Assembly (NCBI GenBank): GCA_030867685.1
Contig: JAQOWU010000008.1
Coordinates: 2,852,001-2,916,000 of the forward strand
Source of the DNA: Wickerhamiella versatilis
Taxonomy: Eukaryota
Direction: 5' to 3'
Length of the DNA stretch: 64,000 nt
The notes beneath the pieces were generated by a model. That model was not told the origin of the DNA. It saw nothing but the letters and a program-made list of their open reading frames with translations, and made no database searches. A program made the translations under genes and the position numbers. The number at the start of each line of letters is the position of its first letter. The first letter of the stretch is position 1. Below, one piece after another: positions 1 to 54,948 of this stretch.

Positions 1-82
1 CGCGGCGGGTGCCCCTTTGTTACTGGGCTGAGATTACACCGTTTGCACTCGATCAAGTTCGTACTTGCGAGAGGATTGTGGC
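1..82 (+). promoter_or_regulatory. TPP riboswitch aptamer, copy 1 (5' arm of P1 clipped by window start)
   Basis: GGGTGCCC..GGGCTGAGA..ACCG..CACTCGATCAAGTTCGTACTTGCGAGAGGA. Contains P3 GCCC/GGGC, the UGAGA motif, P2 GCGG/CCGT, P4 CTC/GAG, P5 CAAGT/ACTTG followed by CG, and P1 CGCGG/TTGTG. Confidence 0.9.
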
Positions 83-103
83 ACTATAGATCTTGTTTAA
101 GAA

Positions 104-182
104 GTCGCGACGGGTGCCTTTTTAAAGGCTGAGATCAAACCGTTAACACTCGATCAAGTTCGTACTTGCGTGAGAATGTGAC
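104..182 (+). promoter_or_regulatory. TPP riboswitch aptamer, copy 2
   Basis: P1 GTCGCG/TGTGAC, P2 ACGG/CCGT, P3 GCCTTT/AAAGGC, TGAGA. The 24-nt P4/P5 core at 147-170 is identical to 46-69. Confidence 0.92.
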
Positions 183-272
183 TCTATAAATCTTTTTTAT
201 CAAATATGGCTCTTTTAGGAAATTTAGCCAGTCATTTGGAGCTTAAATTAGTCTATGTAGATGCTCCAGATG

Positions 273-2596: not shown

Positions 2597-3868
2597 ATGG
2601 TTGCTTCATCAAAAATAAATTCCGATCCAGCATCAGGCGCTGCATCTGTAACTTCGAGTCCGCATCTGGATGAGAAATATAACTTGAAGCCATTTATACC
2701 GGTGGCTGAGCCGAAGGAGAATATAAAATATGTTAACCTCGAAGCAATTGACCTTGGCAAATACAAGGAAGGATCTGATCCTGAAGCAGTCGAATCTAGG
2801 CGAATCTTGGCAAGACAGCTTGACAAGAGCTTACGCACTTATGGCTTTTTTTTCATTACGAACCACGGGATAGAACCTGAAACCTTCCAGCGGATTGATT
2901 CTATCAATCAGGCCTTGCACTCAATCGACGAGACAGACAAACTGGTCCATAGGTCAGGCGGATTGACATCAGATGAGGACGTGAACAGCGTTGGAGCTGA
3001 ACGTGGGCCAGGTTTCAAACCACGCAAGTATTGGGGGATGGCCAATGGTGTGAGGGATAATATCGAATTTTTCAATTTTGTGAACATTGTGCAAGATTCG
3101 GAGTTGATTAACGAGACTCGGCCTGAATTGGCACGTGTTTACACGAATGAGATAGCCAATTACTTCAGATATATACATCACAATGTTTTGAGAAGGCTCA
3201 CAATTTTGTGCGATAATATCCTGGAGCTACCAGAGGGGACAATATATAACCGGTACTTTAAGGTAGTACAGGGTGATCTCAACAATTCGGGTGGTGGATT
3301 TGGCCGCCTCATGGTTTATTATGGTCAAGATGAGGAGGCAAACAGGCTAACTGAAGATACCTGGCTGAGGGGCCATAGTGATAGCGATGGTTTTACATTT
3401 ATTGCTAGTCAACCCATGGTTTCTCTTCAGATCAGAGACTACGACACCGGGGAATGGCGATATGTCAAGCATGTTCCCAATGCTCTTGTAGTAAATATCG
3501 GTGACGCTCTCGAGTTCATTACTGGTGGGTATTTCCGAAGCACAATTCATCGCGTGGTCAATCCGCCAAAAAGTCAACAAAACCATACACGTCAAGCCAC
3601 TATCTACTTTTGCAAGCCATCCTGGAATTCCTATATCGATCCTGAGGATTTAAAGAGTCCAAGACTTGAGCGCCTTGGTATTAACAGTCCACCTGATTGG
3701 GAAAGAATCACCTACGGTCAATGGGATCTCGAAAAAGGTAGACTGTTTGGCAAGTCTAAGATCAACAATAAGCCAGGAGAAGAGCCTGAACCAGTCCTTA
3801 TACACGGTCGCCTAGCTGAGCGCTGGATTCCCACAGTCGATTTGGATAAGTTGGGTATTGCCGTTTAA
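2597..3868 (+). CDS. 2-oxoglutarate/Fe(II)-dependent dioxygenase (IPNS-like), substrate unknown
   Basis: YGFFFITNHGI, GHSD (HxD), NIGDALEFITGGYFRSTIHRVV. Confidence 0.85.
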   Translation: MVASSKINSDPASGAASVTSSPHLDEKYNLKPFIPVAEPKENIKYVNLEAIDLGKYKEGSDPEAVESRRILARQLDKSLRTYGFFFITNHGIEPETFQRIDSINQALHSIDETDKLVHRSGGLTSDEDVNSVGAERGPGFKPRKYWGMANGVRDNIEFFNFVNIVQDSELINETRPELARVYTNEIANYFRYIHHNVLRRLTILCDNILELPEGTIYNRYFKVVQGDLNNSGGGFGRLMVYYGQDEEANRLTEDTWLRGHSDSDGFTFIASQPMVSLQIRDYDTGEWRYVKHVPNALVVNIGDALEFITGGYFRSTIHRVVNPPKSQQNHTRQATIYFCKPSWNSYIDPEDLKSPRLERLGINSPPDWERITYGQWDLEKGRLFGKSKINNKPGEEPEPVLIHGRLAERWIPTVDLDKLGIAV

Positions 3869-3995: not shown

Positions 3996-4067
3996 TGAAC
4001 TGTCGGAGAATCGAACCCCGGTCCCTGGCTTGGAAGGCCAGGATGATAACCACTACACTAACAGTCC
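3996..4067 (-). tRNA. tRNA-Gly(TCC), intronless
   Basis: Reverse complement GGACTGTTAGTGTAGTGGTTATCATCCTGGCCTTCCAAGCCAGGGACCGGGGTTCGATTCTCCGACAGTTCA folds as a cloverleaf with TCC anticodon; T5 terminator follows immediately. Confidence 0.97.
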
Positions 4068-4185: not shown

Positions 4186-4530
4186 ATGACACATTTGTAT
4201 CGTCCTCGGAGAAGATATCTTGGTCACCTAACCCACGTCCAACGTTGTCAGTGGCAAGTAATGCCACCAATTCGCAGTAAAAAGCGGGAGGGGGCTTTGG
4301 TGAATCGAAAAAAACAACATGTATCTGCTGAGAAACGCCGTCGCGAGGCGATTAGACGTGGGTTTGACCAGTTAACAGCAATCGTCCCCAATCTGATAAG
4401 TTCCCAAAGTCGGTCCGAGGCTATTGTCCTGGATGAGGCACTAAAGCTACTACATTCTCTTAAACATGAAAATATGCAGCTGCGATCACTCGCAGATCAT
4501 GCACAGTTGAAGCTACCTGATACTTTGTAA
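4186..4530 (+). CDS. INO4: small bHLH transcription factor, Ino4-like (start may be the ATG at 4261)
   Basis: QHVSAEKRRREAIRRGFDQLTAIVPNL..SRSEAIVL matches the Ino4-type bHLH. Confidence 0.7.
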   Translation: MTHLYRPRRRYLGHLTHVQRCQWQVMPPIRSKKREGALVNRKKQHVSAEKRRREAIRRGFDQLTAIVPNLISSQSRSEAIVLDEALKLLHSLKHENMQLRSLADHAQLKLPDTL

Positions 4531-4617: not shown

Positions 4618-7600
4618 ATGGAAGTATCGAATCGCTTGGAGTTTTGGCTGAACGGGAAACACCGTGTGGTGGTCAATCCAGATCCATCTCAAAACATTAT
4701 TGAATATGTGAGGGATGAAGGTTTGACTGGTACAAAGCTTGGATGTTCAGAGGGCGGATGTGGTGCCTGCACCGTAACTGTTAGTGAATGGGATGCTGAG
4801 AAACAGAAGCCCAAATTTTACGCGGTGAATGGATGCATTGCTCCTGTAATTTTCTTAGAAGGTAAGCATCTTGAGACAATCGAGGGCATTGGGAACAGTA
4901 GCTTGCCTCATGCCGCTCAGGAACGCATTGCGAAGTACCACGGCTCACAATGCGGTTTTTGTACTCCAGGAATTGTAATGAGTCTCTACGCAACACTTAG
5001 GGAAACAGAGGGACAACCAACTCGAGAGCAGATCTCAACTGCGTTTGATGGTAACTTATGCCGTTGCACTGGGTATAAGCCGATTATAGATGCGGCAGAT
5101 ACATTCACAGTCGATGGCGATACTTCAAATGGATTTAATGGGGCACCCTGCTCCGGGGATAAGTCGGAATTAGCGAACGGCTGCTCAGCAAATGTTAAGC
5201 AAAATGGTTGTAGTAAAGGACAGGGATGCTGTCAGGTTAAATCAGATTCCAAAAATGGATCCAATGGCTGCTGTGGTGGCTTAAAAACTCCAAATGGTTT
5301 TTCTCTGCGACAGTACCCGCATTCAGAGCGGATTTTTCCACCTGCCCTGAAGAAATACTCTTCAAAGTTTGTACGCCTTGAATCTCCTAGTGGCAGTATT
5401 TGGTATCGTCCAAGAACATTAGAAGATTTGAAAGCTATAGTGCAAAAACATGAAAATGTCCATTACGTTGCCGGTGCCTCTGAATTCCAAATTGAAGCCA
5501 AGATCAAGGGTGATGAACACCCAGTATGTGTTTTTCTACACGATATCAAGGAACTGCAAAAGTTCGTGGAATACTCAGACAAATATGAAATTGGAGGAAA
5601 TATTCGTCTTTCAGAGTTGGAGGAACATTTAGCCGGGTCGAAAGACCAAGTCGCTCAGGCTATAAACGAACAATTGAGGTACTTCGCGGGCCGTCAAATT
5701 CGTAATGTGGCAACGCCAGCGGGTAATATTGCCACAGCTTCTCCAATTGCCGACTTGAACCCAGTATTAACTGCTGTAAATGCGTTGCTATCAGTTATTT
5801 TACCTGATGGTAGTACGAAGGAAATTCAAATGGGCGATTTCAACCATCCTTTTTGGACTGGTTATCGTAAAACTTTGCTACCAAAAGATGCGGTTATAAC
5901 CAAAATCGCCATACCCAAGGCAAAACAAGGTGAAACCGTACGATCATTTAAGCAAGCAAAGCGTAAGGATGACGATATTTCTATTGTGACAGCGTGCATG
6001 AGATGTGCAGTATCTGCTGATGGAGTGGTAGAAGCGTGTGCATTAGCTTATGGTGGTGTCGCACCATTTACTGTATTGACTGGAAACGAGCTTGTAGGCT
6101 CTAAAGTGTCCGATTTACAGGGTGCTGGCTTGAAGTTACTCGAATCTCGTTTCCAACTCCCTTACAATGTTCCTGGGGGTATGGCGAAATTCCGTAGATC
6201 TTTGATCCTTTCGTTTTTTTACAAGTTTGTCCAGGCTCTTCTACCTTCTTCAGAAGCTGATAAGGATGCCTTGGCAGAAGTTACACGCAAACACCCGGTT
6301 GGCGTGCGTGATCTTCGCAATCGCTATGAACAGGAGATTTTGGGCAAAAGCACTATGCACGTTAATGCTATGAAACAAGTTACAGGAGAAGCACTTTACG
6401 TCGATGATATCCCAGCATTCCGCAATGAATTGCACGCAGTTCAAATCCTTTCCACTCGGGCTTCAGCTAGAATTACGAAGATTGACTATTCTGGTCTACT
6501 TGATATGCCTGGTGTGGAGGGTATAGTCGACTATCGTGATGTACCTGGATCCAACAGGTGGGGTGCGTTTGTAAAACTTGGACCCGATACGTTGTTCGTC
6601 GAAGATGGAATATGTAAATACGTTGGCGATTGTATTGGCTTGGTTGTGGCAACGACTCGAGATATAGCAGTGAAAGCTTCCCGCAAAGTTCATGTCGAGT
6701 ACGAGAGTCTTGGTGATCCTATTTTCACCATTGAACAAGCTATAGAGAAACAGTCCTTTTTTGACTTGCGTCCTCTAATAGAGAAAAACGACCCAAAGCT
6801 TGCACTCACGCAAGCCAAATATGTTTTCGAAGGCAGCTCAAGAACAGGCTCTCAGGAACACTTTTATTTTGAACCCCAGGGAGCGCTAGTTGTTCCTGAG
6901 GATAACGATGAGTACAAAATCTATGCTAGCACCCAGAATCCTAATGAGACACAACTCGTTGCCGCATCGGCTCTTGGACTCCCAGCGAACCGTGTAGTGG
7001 CACGTGTGAAGCGGCTGGGTGGTGGTTTCGGAGGAAAGGAGACACGTTCCGTGCATTATTCTGCGATAGCTACTATAGCAGCACACAAGTTTCGCCGTCC
7101 AGTTCGTATAATTCTATCGCGGCAAGAGGATATGCTTCAAGCTGGCCAGCGACATCCAATGCTTGCAAAGTGGAAAGTTGGTCTAGATGAAAACTTGAAG
7201 TTCACAGCCCTTGATGTTGATTTGTATTTTAACGCTGGCTATTCGCTGGACCTCTCGAAAGGTGTGATGGATCGAGGTGTGCTTCACGTCGACAATTGCT
7301 ACGACTTTGGTGCAGTTAGGGCTTGTGCATATCCCTGTCGTACTAACATTGCGAGTAATACTGCTTTCAGAGGCTTTGGTGGACCTCAGGGTATGTTCGT
7401 TGCAGAGACCATTATATATGAAGTATCCAACGCTCTGGGAGTCACGCCCGAAGAACTTCGAGCTCGCAATTTCTACCCATTGAAGGGTGGCGAGACTCCT
7501 TATAAACAGAAGCTAGGGGATGATTTCACTGTACCAATCATGGCTGAAAAGCTCCTTTCGGAAGTCGACTATCCGAAGCTTCGTCAGGAAGTAGACAGGT

Positions 7601-8637
7601 TCAATTCTACTTCCAAGTGGATAAAAAGAGGCTTGGCATCTGTACCAACAAAATTTGGTGTTTCTTTCGGTGTTAAATTCCTCAATCAAGCAGGAGCTTT
7701 GGTTCACATTTACGAGGATGGCTCAGTTTTACTTGCACATGGTGGTACGGAGATGGGACAAGGACTGCATACTAAAATGACTATGGTTGCTGCCCATGAG
7801 CTTGGTGTCCCAGTGGATAATGTCTACATAAGTGAAACGTCAACACAAACCGTAGCAAACGCGTCTCCAACGGCTGCCTCAGCTTCTAGTGATCTCAACG
7901 GAGGCGCTGTGAAGAACGCATGCGATCAGCTGAACGCAAGATTAGAACCTTATCGGGAAAAATTGGGTCCAAATGCAACGATGAAAGAATTAGCACATGC
8001 ATGCTATTTTGACCGTGTGAACCTTAGTGCGAATGGCTTCTATAAGACACCAGATATCGACTTTACATTCGGGGACCCTAATCCGGGACCCGCTTTCTCC
8101 TACTACACTCAAGGAGTGGCGGTTGTAATGGTGGAAGCTAACTTACTCACTGGTGACTGGGCCAACCTGCAAACTGATATCCTAATGGACATTGGTCGGC
8201 CAATCAATCAAGCAATTGACTATGGACAGATTGAAGGCGCATTTGTACAAGGACAGGGGCTCTTTACAATAGAAGAAAGTTTGTGGAATGCTAACGGTTC
8301 CCTGCTCACTCGGGGACCTGGTGCGTATAAGATACCCGGATTCCGGGACATTCCTCAACATTTTAACGTCTCTCATCTTCAGGATAGATCTTTTGACCAT
8401 CTCAAAACAATTCACCAATCTAAGGGTATTGGGGAACCACCACTATTCCTTGGATCTACTGTTCTTTTCGCCTTGCTTGATGCGCTAAAATCGGCACGTG
8501 TACCTCGAGGTTTAGGAATAGTAAAGGGCATTAGTGCACCATTGACTACAGAAAGTATCCGCAATGCAGCTGGAGATGATATATCTCAGTTGGCTGAAGT
8601 CGAGCAAGTTGGTGTGCCATTTTCAATGAGAGCCTAG
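4618..8637 (+). CDS. XDH: xanthine dehydrogenase (molybdo-flavoenzyme)
   Basis: 2Fe-2S motifs GCSEGGCGAC and QCGFCTPG; Moco-domain motifs GGGFGGKETR, AFRGFGGPQG, GIGEPPL; 1339 aa. Confidence 0.96.
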   Translation: MEVSNRLEFWLNGKHRVVVNPDPSQNIIEYVRDEGLTGTKLGCSEGGCGACTVTVSEWDAEKQKPKFYAVNGCIAPVIFLEGKHLETIEGIGNSSLPHAAQERIAKYHGSQCGFCTPGIVMSLYATLRETEGQPTREQISTAFDGNLCRCTGYKPIIDAADTFTVDGDTSNGFNGAPCSGDKSELANGCSANVKQNGCSKGQGCCQVKSDSKNGSNGCCGGLKTPNGFSLRQYPHSERIFPPALKKYSSKFVRLESPSGSIWYRPRTLEDLKAIVQKHENVHYVAGASEFQIEAKIKGDEHPVCVFLHDIKELQKFVEYSDKYEIGGNIRLSELEEHLAGSKDQVAQAINEQLRYFAGRQIRNVATPAGNIATASPIADLNPVLTAVNALLSVILPDGSTKEIQMGDFNHPFWTGYRKTLLPKDAVITKIAIPKAKQGETVRSFKQAKRKDDDISIVTACMRCAVSADGVVEACALAYGGVAPFTVLTGNELVGSKVSDLQGAGLKLLESRFQLPYNVPGGMAKFRRSLILSFFYKFVQALLPSSEADKDALAEVTRKHPVGVRDLRNRYEQEILGKSTMHVNAMKQVTGEALYVDDIPAFRNELHAVQILSTRASARITKIDYSGLLDMPGVEGIVDYRDVPGSNRWGAFVKLGPDTLFVEDGICKYVGDCIGLVVATTRDIAVKASRKVHVEYESLGDPIFTIEQAIEKQSFFDLRPLIEKNDPKLALTQAKYVFEGSSRTGSQEHFYFEPQGALVVPEDNDEYKIYASTQNPNETQLVAASALGLPANRVVARVKRLGGGFGGKETRSVHYSAIATIAAHKFRRPVRIILSRQEDMLQAGQRHPMLAKWKVGLDENLKFTALDVDLYFNAGYSLDLSKGVMDRGVLHVDNCYDFGAVRACAYPCRTNIASNTAFRGFGGPQGMFVAETIIYEVSNALGVTPEELRARNFYPLKGGETPYKQKLGDDFTVPIMAEKLLSEVDYPKLRQEVDRFNSTSKWIKRGLASVPTKFGVSFGVKFLNQAGALVHIYEDGSVLLAHGGTEMGQGLHTKMTMVAAHELGVPVDNVYISETSTQTVANASPTAASASSDLNGGAVKNACDQLNARLEPYREKLGPNATMKELAHACYFDRVNLSANGFYKTPDIDFTFGDPNPGPAFSYYTQGVAVVMVEANLLTGDWANLQTDILMDIGRPINQAIDYGQIEGAFVQGQGLFTIEESLWNANGSLLTRGPGAYKIPGFRDIPQHFNVSHLQDRSFDHLKTIHQSKGIGEPPLFLGSTVLFALLDALKSARVPRGLGIVKGISAPLTTESIRNAAGDDISQLAEVEQVGVPFSMRA

Positions 8638-18276: not shown

Positions 18277-18553
18277 ATCCTTCAACACCCGTAATCGGTA
18301 TCGAGTTCCGACAATATTGCCGGGCCACGCATTGCACTTAAGACCTACCTAGTCCATTCCATATAGGGTGGACCAAGCGATCAATCCCCTACCACGCCTT
18401 TCCCAAGGCCCGTAGGCCGATATTTCTGATGACGCGGCCTGCAGTTCCCCACAGCCCTCTCTCGAGGATATAATCGGGGAGGTTTCACCGAATTTACCCA
18501 CTCTCATTCTAATTTCGTTTGTGGAGAGTCAGCGTGGCCGAGTGCAGAAGGAC
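18277..18553 (-). ncRNA. RPR1: nuclear RNase P RNA
   Basis: Conserved regions in order on the minus strand: CR-I GGGTAAATTCGGTG (18499-18486), CR-II TCAGAAA, CR-III TGGGAA, CR-IV AAGTGCAAT, CR-V GAACTCGATACCGATTAC (18308-18291). P1 GTCCTTC-TGCACTCG/CGGGTGT-TGAAGGAT; P2 GGCCACGC/GCGTGGCC; T5 terminator at 18263-18259. Confidence 0.93.
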
Positions 18554-19103
18554 TTGAGTCACGCGAGACGACTAGGCCACGCATGCATCTTTGATTATCT
18601 GGGTTTTTCACTTGATAGCCTAAATGCACCCTTGCCCATTATCATTTAGTTGCCATGTTCTTAGCCGTAGCAGTAACAGCAACTAGGCTATGGTGACCTA
18701 GATAATTATTTATTATTATATTTATATTTTTATGCATACATTCCTGTAAGGCTGAAATGCTTGCCAGATAAATTACAATTTGACCGCGTATTTTCTGGAA
18801 AGAGAATAATGATCTAATTTTAGTCCCTCACTCGCAGGTAACCTGTTACAATGTTCTAGGGCCGACATGAAGACCCTATGCTTTGTTATTTGCAGCCATT
18901 ATACTAACTAGCTTCAGGAAACTCATGCTTATCTCTGCCCAAGCATCTCTCGAAACACCTAACGCTACAACCTGTTTTATTGGTGAATCATAGCCTGATA
19001 ATATAGATAATTCAGTTCACTGGCTGAGATTAATTGGAGACTCCAAATAACTGAGCAGCAATTTTTTCCGGTCTGTCAGTGCGCCCTAACCTCGTATCTC
19101 CCT

Positions 19104-25016: not shown

Positions 25017-26717
25017 TTAACCACTCTCATGCGCATTTTCATGTTCATCTTGCAATGGACTCGACTCGTCGTCATCAAACCCTTTTTCGGTTGAATCATG
25101 CTCAGACTTTATATCTTCTTCATTTGGGACATGAGTTTCATCTGAATCAGTCTCATTTTCTGAAGACTCATCCTGCTCCTCCTCCTCTCTTTTCTGTAGC
25201 GCAAGTTGACAAAGAGCTCGCGACTCGGTGAGTCGAGCATTGCAACTCTGAACAAGGAATACGGCAACTTGTTGTGATTCTCGAAGTGCAACGTTTGCTA
25301 TTTCCATATTGATATCATAGTATTGCGCCTCCTCACGAACTTTGCTAACCTTCTTTTTCAGTCCATGGTAATTGCGCCATCGGTCCCATTCATTGTCCGT
25401 CGCGGACGCTGCCTCACGACCCGCTTCCGAAAGAATGATATCAAAATAGTCATCTAATGCCTCCAGAGTTACCTCTCGCAAAGATTGGACGGCTGCTATA
25501 GCGGCATCAGCGAGGCTCTGTGCTAGTTGACGCACCACAAGTGCATGCTCAGCCAAGTCGTTACTCCACTCCAAGAATTGGGGGTAAACAACATCAGGCG
25601 AAATATCTGCGCCATTCTCTAATTCTTTAGCTAAATCCGCACTCAGAATGATATATTCATCACCAAGCTGCGTGATCTCGCGCAACGCCTGCTGTATCTC
25701 AGGCCTTGCATCAGTAATTAGCTCCTGCAGAGTTGAATTCACATCGACCTCTAGATTTTGAATTGCCCCAGCAACTGTACGATTTATGCGTCGCATCCAC
25801 TTTTCTTCATCTTTCAAGACCTGAGGGCTTGCACTTTGGGTTGAAGATTCCGACTGGGTGCGGGTCAGTGTTAAGGTGGGCAGTTCTTCAGGATCATCAT
25901 ATTCTGTCGTTTGGGATTCAACCGAACTCACCAGCCCCCCACTACTGAATGATTCAGTTTCAATGGCCGACGTACTTTCTTGCATTACAGTAGCAGTATC
26001 TTCGGCAGTCGTATCTGCCAGATCGCCATTTGTGGTTTCTGCTGCTGTTTCGACTGGCTGCTCCACAACCTCAGATGCTATCGACGTATCGGTATTCTCC
26101 GTATCAAATTTCGAGGGCTGCAACGCGTCGGTGATGTTTGAACCAAGCAAGGACTCTACGTTTTCTATGATAGCTTGTTTCCAGGCTGGCCAGTTCTCCC
26201 TTATTTGGCGTATGATATCTTCACTTTTGATCCAAATAAAATGACCCAGATCTAAACTTTTTTGATGACCATATATCCAAGTCTTTCTGGCATATTCACG
26301 CACTCTGGGCGATTCTCTTTTGATATGCTCAGATAAGATATGTGAAGCTTTTATCGCACTGATTTTGGCTTGTTTAGCTTGCTTTTCTACAACGGGACTC
26401 AGCTTTTCATAAGTTGAAGTCGCGTAGAAGCTCGCCCGATCGACGTGAGGTCCTGCCCATTCGACGAACGGATCCCAATACGGACTCGCTTTCTCATGTA
26501 CTTCGGCGCGAAGTGTCTCCACCTGTGGACTATTCATCGCTTTCTCAAAGAGTTGCGATGATTGTGACGTCAAATAGTTGACTGTGTTACAGGCCGCAGT
26601 ATCATTTGTCGCACACCATCTAGTACCACCGAATGCAGCAATAAAAATGAGGAAAATTACAAGAAGAAAAGATTTCTTCGTCCTACGTTGAGGGCGTTCT
26701 CGCCATGGTGGGGCCAT
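25017..26717 (-). CDS. She10/Osw7-like protein (N-terminal anchor, acidic helical body)
   Basis: N-terminal TM helix, acidic S/T linker, WDRWRNYHGLKK motif reminiscent of the She10 family. Confidence 0.5.
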   Translation of the reverse strand: MAPPWRERPQRRTKKSFLLVIFLIFIAAFGGTRWCATNDTAACNTVNYLTSQSSQLFEKAMNSPQVETLRAEVHEKASPYWDPFVEWAGPHVDRASFYATSTYEKLSPVVEKQAKQAKISAIKASHILSEHIKRESPRVREYARKTWIYGHQKSLDLGHFIWIKSEDIIRQIRENWPAWKQAIIENVESLLGSNITDALQPSKFDTENTDTSIASEVVEQPVETAAETTNGDLADTTAEDTATVMQESTSAIETESFSSGGLVSSVESQTTEYDDPEELPTLTLTRTQSESSTQSASPQVLKDEEKWMRRINRTVAGAIQNLEVDVNSTLQELITDARPEIQQALREITQLGDEYIILSADLAKELENGADISPDVVYPQFLEWSNDLAEHALVVRQLAQSLADAAIAAVQSLREVTLEALDDYFDIILSEAGREAASATDNEWDRWRNYHGLKKKVSKVREEAQYYDINMEIANVALRESQQVAVFLVQSCNARLTESRALCQLALQKREEEEQDESSENETDSDETHVPNEEDIKSEHDSTEKGFDDDESSPLQDEHENAHESG

Positions 26718-53877: not shown

Positions 53878-54948
53878 ATGATAACGATCCATGTGACTAT
53901 ACCAGGGGTATCACTTGTTGCCTTTGCTGCAGCCCTTTTTGCGTGTGCGCCCTGTGTCCTGGCCATCGTTTTAGCATGCGGAACTTACAGTTCCATCCAC
54001 CATCTGCAGATTCCTGTGGCTATGTTAGGAGGACTGGAAGGTCTGAATGCTTTGTTTTTCCTTGTTCCAATATGCATCACAACCACATGGCTGTCCTGGG
54101 TACCCGTTAGTATGTTCACGGTTGCCTCTGGCGGCGTGGGTCTATGGTGGCTTGGTGAGCGGCTTCAGACAGTCTCCCTCGATCTTTATAGGCCCTTGGA
54201 GACGGCATTGTTGGTTATTTGGTTACTTTCCTTAGGCACTTCGCTGGCCGTTTGTGTCTATGCCCTTGACCGAGTAGCCTTGGTGTCGTACGACCTTCCA
54301 ACTTCTCCCAATCCCAGCACGAACTCGTGGCCCGAGACTCTGGTAACAGAGAAACCCTTTGAAACCAACTCGATGCACGCGCCTTATATGGCACGAAATA
54401 TAACCCCAGAGAGTCATGTGGCTCCTCTCCCGGAAGTATTGGAAACACCCCGAGTGCATCAACATCGACAATCACATACACACACCCCAGAGATGACACA
54501 GAGCCCAGTAAAGCGCTCTCCTGGGAAGACCAATGTACCTTTGCACACCAAAGGGTCGCAGGTATCACTTGGGTCTGTATTTAGTTTTAAGCGGTCCCCG
54601 TCGAAGCTTGTAAAGCCCATCCATGAACCTCCGATGCCGAGCTTGGCTGGCTTGGACGCACTGCCGGAGGGTTTCCATCCGCAGGACCCACCACAGCTCG
54701 GCCCATTTGCCGTGAGCGCAGCTGCTGCTGCTAGTGTGGATGATCCACATTGGGATGAGAGTCTTCATGTGCAGGACCGCATGAAGTGGATTATGATGAA
54801 TTCTTCTGATAATCAGTCGCGATCAGTCTCTGGTTCCACTAACTTGAGTGGTAGTCTTTTCGGTGCGGCTGAATATAACCGCCAGATAAATGACGCGGGG
54901 TTTGTGAAGGATGAACCGAGCCCATTCCCCAGAAGACCTAGAGCATGA
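53878..54948 (+). CDS. 4-TM protein with disordered tail, Irc8-like
   Basis: Four N-terminal hydrophobic segments and a S/P-rich tail; lies next to MTR4 as IRC8 does in S. cerevisiae. Confidence 0.5.
   Translation: MITIHVTIPGVSLVAFAAALFACAPCVLAIVLACGTYSSIHHLQIPVAMLGGLEGLNALFFLVPICITTTWLSWVPVSMFTVASGGVGLWWLGERLQTVSLDLYRPLETALLVIWLLSLGTSLAVCVYALDRVALVSYDLPTSPNPSTNSWPETLVTEKPFETNSMHAPYMARNITPESHVAPLPEVLETPRVHQHRQSHTHTPEMTQSPVKRSPGKTNVPLHTKGSQVSLGSVFSFKRSPSKLVKPIHEPPMPSLAGLDALPEGFHPQDPPQLGPFAVSAAAAASVDDPHWDESLHVQDRMKWIMMNSSDNQSRSVSGSTNLSGSLFGAAEYNRQINDAGFVKDEPSPFPRRPRA

Follow-up and report, generated by a model that had tools for sequence, protein, structure and literature searches.

The 64-kb window analysed here (64,000 nucleotides (nt) of the Wickerhamiella versatilis contig JAQOWU010000008.1, numbered from its first letter) opens on two thiamine pyrophosphate (TPP) riboswitch aptamers lying head to tail on the + strand. 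Copy 1 occupies positions 1–93; the window start truncates its 5′ end, and the aptamer itself ends at about 84. Copy 2 is complete, occupies positions 100–193 and has a P1 stem formed by approximately 103–109 and 177–183. The stretch between them (84–105, +) comprises the 3′ flank of copy 1, CTATAGATCTT (84–94), and the spacer to copy 2, and could form base pairs with the first (5′) half of that copy. The copy 1 flank is repeated after copy 2 as CTATAAATCTT, which runs into six consecutive T residues (T6, 193–198), so that this second flank region extends from 184 to 198 (+). Further downstream follow a 10-bp hairpin (an inverted repeat seen in the fold of 228–280; 234–275, +), whose membership in the element is uncertain, and a gene for a sodium:solute symporter of the DUR3 type (273–2234, − strand, 653 amino acids (aa), PF00474). 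The hairpin lies across the stop codon of this gene, which converges on the aptamers and ends 80 nt from copy 2. The gene is described as context, and its regulation by the aptamers is not implied.

A first reading of the bare letters (hereafter the sequence-only reading) had proposed two TPP aptamer units in tandem followed by a T6 run at 193–198. The T6 run is present as described, and a search with the Rfam TPP model RF00059 supports both units, at 65.6 and 49.8 bits and both on the + strand. Copy 2 aligns to the full model (model positions 1–105; E 1.2e-10 for the whole 64-kb window in the Rfam scan), and its 65.6 bits lie above the gathering score of 54.3 bits. Copy 1 (E 6e-9 in a permissive scan of the 400 nt at 1–400) lies below that score and aligns to model positions 7–105. 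Truncated by the window edge, it lacks model positions 1–6, and its outer P1 pairs fall outside the window, leaving P2, P3, UGAGA, P4/P5 and the 3′ strand of P1 in view. The Rfam scan gave no further TPP match in the 64 kb.

The motifs CUGAGAU, CGAUC and UGCG stand at the aligned model positions of both copies, and they contain UGAGA in J3/2 and GAU...GCG around P5, which we take to be the ligand contacts from the thiM and THIC crystal structures. Used as a pattern, 21 specified bases shared by the two cores match exactly twice in the 64 kb (28–69 and 129–170) and in none of 100 shuffles. Judged by the family match, both copies are genuine TPP aptamers, and they would be expected to bind TPP.

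The core pattern (UGAGA, 4 nt, ACC..UU, 4 nt, CUCGAUC, 12 nt, GCG), derived from both copies, was found at eight loci in metagenome contigs (L001–L008), once at each; the host species is not among them. All eight loci match RF00059 as well, at 32–52 bits (E<=0.016), and none of them reaches the gathering score of 54.3. At all eight, a DUR31-type coding region starts 75–300 nt downstream of the aptamer on the same strand, and one of the loci belongs to Metschnikowia pulcherrima (100% protein match). The linked family is a 460–530-aa ‘urea transport protein’ of Candida, Metschnikowia, Ogataea and Brettanomyces. None of the matches is named DUR31, and we take the family to be DUR31 because it fits the thiamine transporter of Donovan et al., for which the available part of that paper gives 525 aa and a riboswitch intron after about 58 codons (PMC5997356).

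Neither prokaryote genomes (596 billion bases) nor viral contigs contained the same pattern. Since the eight pattern loci are all fungal and DUR31-linked and the prokaryote genomes gave none, the aptamers do not appear to be a recent bacterial import. By the core that both copies carry, they are of the fungal DUR31/NCU01977-linked subtype, a call that rests on the DUR31-linked loci and leaves THI4-, NMT1- and MCP-linked aptamers outside the pattern comparison. Because of their long P3 stems, DUR31-linked fungal aptamers are under-detected by RF00059 at its gathering score, and compact variants like the present pair are the only DUR31-type aptamers that a standard RF00059 scan catches. Apart from the aptamers, L001 also holds a U6 small nuclear RNA-like match (5139–5242, −; 33.6 bits against a gathering score of 44) roughly 1 kb away from its riboswitch-bearing DUR31-type gene.

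The two copies are about 83% alike, head to tail on the + strand. A repeat finder divided them into two blocks, one of 51 nt at 88% identity with a spacing of 101 and one of 18 nt at 83% with a spacing of 105, and the spacings differ because the P3 loop of copy 1 is 4 nt longer. Tandem Repeats Finder reported no repeat at the aptamer pair, as would be expected when fewer than two full copies are present and these carry indels. The fixed unit of ~105 bp given by the sequence-only reading has to be replaced by a period of 100–105 nt. Its P4/P5 core of 24 identical nt (46–69 = 147–170) is correct, as is the ending CTATA(G/A)ATCTT after each copy (84–94 and 184–194), where 10 of the 11 flank bases are the same; the similarity between the repeats ends after copy 2 at ~205. 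It had also held that P1 and P3 differ between the copies with their pairing kept, which is true of P3 and not of P1. P3 is a very short stem in both (GCCC/GGGC in copy 1 and GCCUU/AAGGC in copy 2) and has one fully compensatory pair. As the visible part of P1 reads CGCG/UGUG in copy 1 and copy 2 alike, there is no covariation in P1, and P3 holds the sole compensatory change.

Stem differences that preserve pairing are a G-U to A-U change in P2 and a C-G to U-A change in P3, and copy 1 has one mismatch in P3 and one in P4. The RF00059 consensus served as an external reference: 2 of 41 highly conserved and 11 of 35 variable model positions differ between the copies (Fisher's exact test, p=0.0044, positions counted manually in the RF00059 alignments). 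Because the differences avoid the family-conserved positions and the stem changes keep pairing, this comparison indicates that both copies evolved under aptamer-type constraint after the duplication; it says nothing on the present day.

The duplication itself is also found in contigs of sequencing runs. Among the runs listed, 18 contain no fewer than half of the sampled words of positions 1–2600 and 10 contain all of them, and four (X9, X4, X18 and X19) were aligned to 1–1200. A single contig spans this region with no difference both in the isolate run X9 (125,834 nt) and in the food-fermentation metagenome X4 (97,889 nt). Both contigs extend far upstream past position 1 (that of X9 by ~48 kb), which means that the window does not begin at a contig end. 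Since this DNA may itself come from X9 and X4, these two are not independent proof; only X18 is independent. It contributes a 3,442-nt contig from a 99% identical strain that carries both aptamer copies and spans both convergent units, and X19 covers only 1051–1200. An assembly artefact, named beforehand as a finding that would undo the tandem arrangement, is contradicted by the presence of the pair in long single contigs of X9 and X4 and in the X18 strain. In that strain copy 1 is unchanged, and besides two differences in copy 2, to which we return below, the nine other differences listed in 1–1200 all lie in the transporter gene, six of them at third codon positions.

The sequence-only reading also placed the aptamers outside the 5′ leader or 5′ intron of any downstream gene, and we reach the same view: the sole gene within 2.4 kb is the convergent DUR3-type gene, and no DUR31-type coding sequence, remnant or canonical splice signal was found. 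A tblastn search of the window with two DUR31-type proteins gave no DUR31-type gene, matching only the minus-strand DUR3-type gene, at 24%. A profile built from 120 sequences of the family gave only negative scores in all six frames of 1–420 with filters off. No transporter main exon follows on the same strand, and the longest + strand open reading frames (ORFs) in 1–700 have 28–43 aa, which indicates a low coding potential downstream. A 28-aa ORF at 206–292 resembled the start of DUR31 exon 2 to the eye; the profile gave no alignment there, and we rejected the resemblance as chance.

The + strand of 1–700 contains no GTA[AT]GT, GTGAGT or GTACGT donor and no TACTAAC-like motif. Thus neither a splice donor upstream of the aptamers nor a branch point with an acceptor downstream is in view, and a donor for copy 1 would fall outside the window. 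At a Metschnikowia locus used as control (L003), GTATGT lies ~35 nt before the aptamer and TACTAAC ~280 nt after it, just before exon 2. A second yeast control (L008) has GTACGT and also GCTAAC, which the strict motif overlooked, and for this reason a degenerate branch point is possible in the window. No terminator-like hairpin was found on the + strand of 1–600, including the stretch before the T6 run. The T6 run was accordingly rejected as a bacterial intrinsic terminator, there being no hairpin ahead of it; on the minus strand it is an A6 stretch ~75 nt past the stop codon of the DUR3-type gene.

Folding predictions point to a possible switch between the copies. Copy 2 alone (100–185) has the canonical aptamer fold as its minimum free energy (MFE) structure, at −22.6 kcal/mol. 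For 84–185 the MFE structure is an alternative hairpin (89–136; −24.7 kcal/mol) in which the spacer, including the conserved flank, pairs with the half of copy 2 that holds P2, P3 and UGAGA. The alternative hairpin is also the MFE structure of 84–140 (−15.3 kcal/mol, z −2.37, equalled by 3 of 200 shuffles) and appears in the centroid of 1–300. The predicted pairing of spacer and copy 2 would be a two-state arrangement of the riboswitch kind, with modest statistics. The sequence across the DUR3-type stop codon (228–280) folds at −17.6 kcal/mol on the + strand (z −2.85, 3/200) and at −13.4 kcal/mol on the minus strand (z −2.05, 7/200). The 234–275 hairpin is stronger as + strand RNA because one of its positions pairs as G-U there, whereas the minus strand has an A-C mismatch.

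The convergent gene is of the DUR3 type, as the sequence-only reading had it. Its protein shares 43% identity end to end with K. lactis Dur3p, and a direct comparison with the riboswitch-linked Metschnikowia DUR31-type protein gave 25% over a partial stretch. The closest named relative, at 53% identity, is labelled ‘Dur31.2’ in Starmerella bombicola. A search with the transporter protein returned no relatives in metagenome contigs or prokaryote genome contigs. The eIF2B-epsilon encoded in the window is closest, among named proteins, to those of Starmerella bacillaris (55%) and Wickerhamiella sorbophila (54%), followed by other named yeasts at no more than 45%, and on this similarity the host is a yeast of the Wickerhamiella/Starmerella clade. 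The ORFs of the window are compact, and no intron needed to be assumed. A nuclear RNase P RNA (18282–18557, −; RF00009, 69.4 bits, E 1e-17) identifies the host as eukaryotic.

By Pfam, no thiamine gene and no MFS or MCP transporter is present among the 30 ORFs of at least 220 aa in the 64-kb window. Next to the DUR3-type gene lie a 2OG-Fe(II) oxygenase gene (2597–3868, +) and a full-length xanthine-dehydrogenase-type molybdoenzyme (4618–8637, +; 1339 aa, seven Pfam domains), a type of enzyme that is uncommon in budding yeasts, and the three genes may form a small purine or nitrogen catabolism neighbourhood. A tRNA-Gly (anticodon UCC; 3996–4067, −) is situated between the oxygenase gene and an INO4-like bHLH gene (4186–4530). 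Two long ORFs, at 25017–26717 (−, 566 aa) and 53878–54948 (+, 356 aa), have no Pfam match at E<=1e-5. In a sister species the DUR3-type protein (P0002) stands at 79% and eIF2B-epsilon (P0242) at 86% identity. For both, the longest contig on record has 74,256 nt; this is perhaps one contig, and gene order may be conserved.

The identity of the aptamers, their tandem arrangement, their subtype, the constraint pattern and the lack of a downstream gene are established. From these we tentatively read the pair as a TPP-responsive element at the 3′ end of a + strand transcript that would start upstream of the window. A local duplication of ~101 bp in a yeast of the Wickerhamiella/Starmerella clade would have doubled an aptamer of the DUR31/NCU01977 lineage, and both copies would have been retained under constraint. 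The aptamers would form the 3′-terminal part of a + strand unit begun upstream, which may be the 3′ untranslated region (UTR) of a gene, as the sequence-only reading proposed, or an orphan RNA of low coding potential, comparable to those of Brettanomyces, and they would occupy the spacer between this unit and the convergent DUR3-type gene. Since there is no exon to splice to, the output is likely to be 3′-end formation, termination or stability of the + strand transcript. Without TPP, the spacer after copy 1, which bears the CUAUAGAUCUUG element, may pair with the P2/P3/UGAGA half of copy 2; with TPP, copy 2 would fold and the spacer would be released.

The RF00059 scores, the avoidance of conserved positions, the fungal DUR31-linked core, the repeated 11-nt flank and the alternative fold all speak for this reading, which as a whole we put forward as a tentative one, at somewhat below an even chance. 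A more specific version seems unlikely to us, namely a eukaryotic riboswitch that works free of splicing, with two 3′-end TPP aptamers each gating CUAUARAUCUU and so setting termination, polyadenylation or decay. Such a switch could also curb antisense read-through into the convergent transporter gene. A review of the host clade, in its available part, describes the loss of de novo thiamine synthesis there (PMC12461148), and for that reason TPP sensing is relevant in this clade. The available part of another paper reports the riboswitches of the clade beside MCP-family transporters and not beside DUR31 (PMC5997356), so the relocation of an aptamer would have a precedent in the lineage.

Several observations weigh against a TPP-responsive 3′-end element that acts today. 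In the X18 strain the only two differences within 1–272 (109 G>T and 119 T>A) both fall in stems of copy 2, and each unpairs a base pair. Conservation of the intergenic region does not significantly exceed that of third codon positions (2/272 vs 6/~309, P 0.10 to 0.29). None of the runs listed for the locus is recorded as RNA; X18 and X19 are RNA by guess only, and neither bears on expression, so that + strand transcription is presumed. The constraint seen between the copies could date from a time when the transporter gene still followed, and gene conversion could equally hold the core identical. The alternative hairpin is just modestly better than shuffles (z −2.37), and 1–300 as a whole shows an ordinary fold (z −0.24). 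The interpretation of the flank as a signal for termination or polyadenylation draws on yeast motifs that we assume to apply (Nab3 UCUUG and an A-rich positioning element), and these motifs are too few for a test. Finally, the putative upstream unit, whether a 3′ UTR or an orphan transcript, lies beyond the window edge.

The X18 differences, the conservation no better than that of synonymous-like sites and the lack of RNA evidence among the runs listed would also be expected if the pair were the remains of the 5′ intron of a thiamine-transporter gene, of the DUR31 type or of the MCP type of the clade, whose body was lost or displaced by a rearrangement that left the aptamers idle. The duplication and the constraint pattern would then predate the break, and the convergent DUR3-type gene would have been left 80 nt away. 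A DUR31-type coding region follows within 75–300 nt at every one of the eight reference loci and is missing from the window, and one deletion or rearrangement is the simplest path from the reference layout to the present one. We consider this account, which the sequence-only reading had not raised, possible though doubtful. Both copies look intact, scoring 49.8 and 65.6 bits against 32–52 for working yeast DUR31 aptamers; copy 1 is without a difference in the 99% identical strain; the 11-nt flank has been retained after both copies; and the lost gene left no detectable coding remnant. Because the DUR3-type stop codon follows copy 2 after 80 nt, on the minus strand, the two transcripts must overlap or end within ~270 nt, a geometry that would fit a different role, in which the aptamers lead a + strand non-coding RNA into the DUR3-type gene and TPP sets its early termination, thereby coupling thiamine to the transporter. 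The greater stability of the 234–275 hairpin on the + strand and the ‘Dur31.2’ label of the Starmerella bombicola relative (53%) agree with such a role. It is nevertheless improbable, as the gene is of the DUR3 urea/polyamine type and not of the thiamine-transporter type (43% vs 25%), the adjacent xanthine-dehydrogenase-like gene suggests nitrogen metabolism, and we know of no link from TPP to urea uptake. Moreover, the literature searched yielded no fungal riboswitch that acts in antisense, and the transcripts are themselves presumed.

The window opens on the first visible base of the P1 stem of copy 1, the repeat unit of an aptamer plus ~20 nt would permit further copies upstream, and the contigs run on in that direction. 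Together these observations allow for a longer array, or for a stand-alone TPP-binding RNA acting as a TPP buffer or sensor, both raised by the sequence-only reading and either of which we regard as quite improbable. The similarity stops at ~205, so the array ends after copy 2, there is no sign of a third copy within the window, and no natural stand-alone TPP-binding RNA was found in the literature searched. Least credible, and largely refuted, are an assembly artefact and the import of a bacterial tandem riboswitch together with horizontally transferred thiamine genes. For the latter one can point to the 213 cases that make tandem TPP riboswitches common in bacteria according to the available part of PMC9481103, and to the bacterial thiamine operons that the host clade acquired according to that of PMC12461148. 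The core pattern, however, is absent from prokaryote genomes and has eight of eight matches in fungal DUR31 introns, and neither a terminator hairpin nor a downstream gene on the same strand accompanies the pair. As for an artefact, the pair occurs in long contigs from two runs and again, in a third run, in the strain of 99% identity; 10 of the runs listed have all sampled words; and the copies differ at ~17% of their positions, so that collapse or expansion in assembly would not be expected.

Nearly all known eukaryotic riboswitches are single TPP aptamers that steer the splicing of a thiamine gene. The plant THIC riboswitch, located in the 3′ UTR, is also single and works via a 3′-UTR intron, TPP altering 3′-end processing and transcript stability. 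A comparable logic would apply to the present aptamers should they be located in a 3′ UTR, with the difference that no donor or branch-point signals are visible here. A 3′-UTR riboswitch has also been predicted in Postia placenta, according to the available part of PMC5882874.

Closest in sequence is the intronic riboswitch of DUR31/NCU01977, known from Candida parapsilosis DUR31 in the available text of PMC5997356, with which the present pair shares the aptamer subtype and the ligand-contact motifs. It differs in having two aptamers instead of one, a very short P3 and no downstream DUR31-type exon, remnant or canonical branch point. The orphan riboswitches of Brettanomyces bruxellensis and B. 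anomalus (Donovan et al., 2018; PMC5997356), as far as the accessible part of the paper describes them, likewise have no obvious gene and have short ORFs nearby (here 28 aa, 206–292). Those aptamers are single, intronic with RNA-seq support and within 1.5 kb of a thiamine biosynthesis gene, whereas the present locus has two copies, no visible splice signals and no thiamine gene in the 64 kb to the right. The pair in the 5′-UTR intron of NMT1 of the oomycete Saprolegnia is also tandem and has been attributed to local duplication by its authors, who give no mechanism for it (Mukherjee et al., 2018; PMC5882874, as available). That pair precedes its presumed target gene, in contrast to the present one, which belongs to an ascomycete yeast and is without a downstream gene. 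It was the only case of eukaryotic tandem TPP aptamers found in the literature, within the available portions of the sources.

Bacterial tandem TPP riboswitches of the Bacillus anthracis tenA type (213 cases; Sherlock et al., 2022; PMC9481103, available part) resemble the present pair in having serial aptamers for the same ligand, each with a short conserved flank. Each of them carries an intrinsic terminator or a platform sequestering the Shine–Dalgarno sequence before one ORF, and here there is neither a terminator hairpin nor a downstream ORF. The locus thus has the tandem without the platform and ORF of the bacterial type, in a eukaryotic host. If both aptamers act, the response could be steeper and pseudo-cooperative.

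The literature searched, including the available parts of the fungal surveys PMC5882874 and PMC11683625, yielded no tandem TPP aptamers from a fungus or yeast. The tandem-riboswitch review PMC9481103 and the survey PMC12452182 have a bacterial focus and, in the parts available, make no mention of fungi. The locus would be either an unusual switch at a transcript end or a well-kept leftover. The host clade matters for both, having lost thiamine synthesis, rebuilt salvage from bacterial genes and moved its riboswitches from DUR31 to another transporter family, as described in the accessible portions of the sources cited above. As a leftover, the pair would give a snapshot of how a riboswitch is lost or re-used when its gene moves. 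As a working switch, a selected aptamer pair with nothing to splice into would point to a second eukaryotic mechanism, acting on 3′-end formation, termination or stability, possibly with a steeper dose response. If the splice-free reading is true, fungi would have their first tandem TPP riboswitch, and the pair would represent a new type of eukaryotic expression platform beside the intronic, splicing-based ones.

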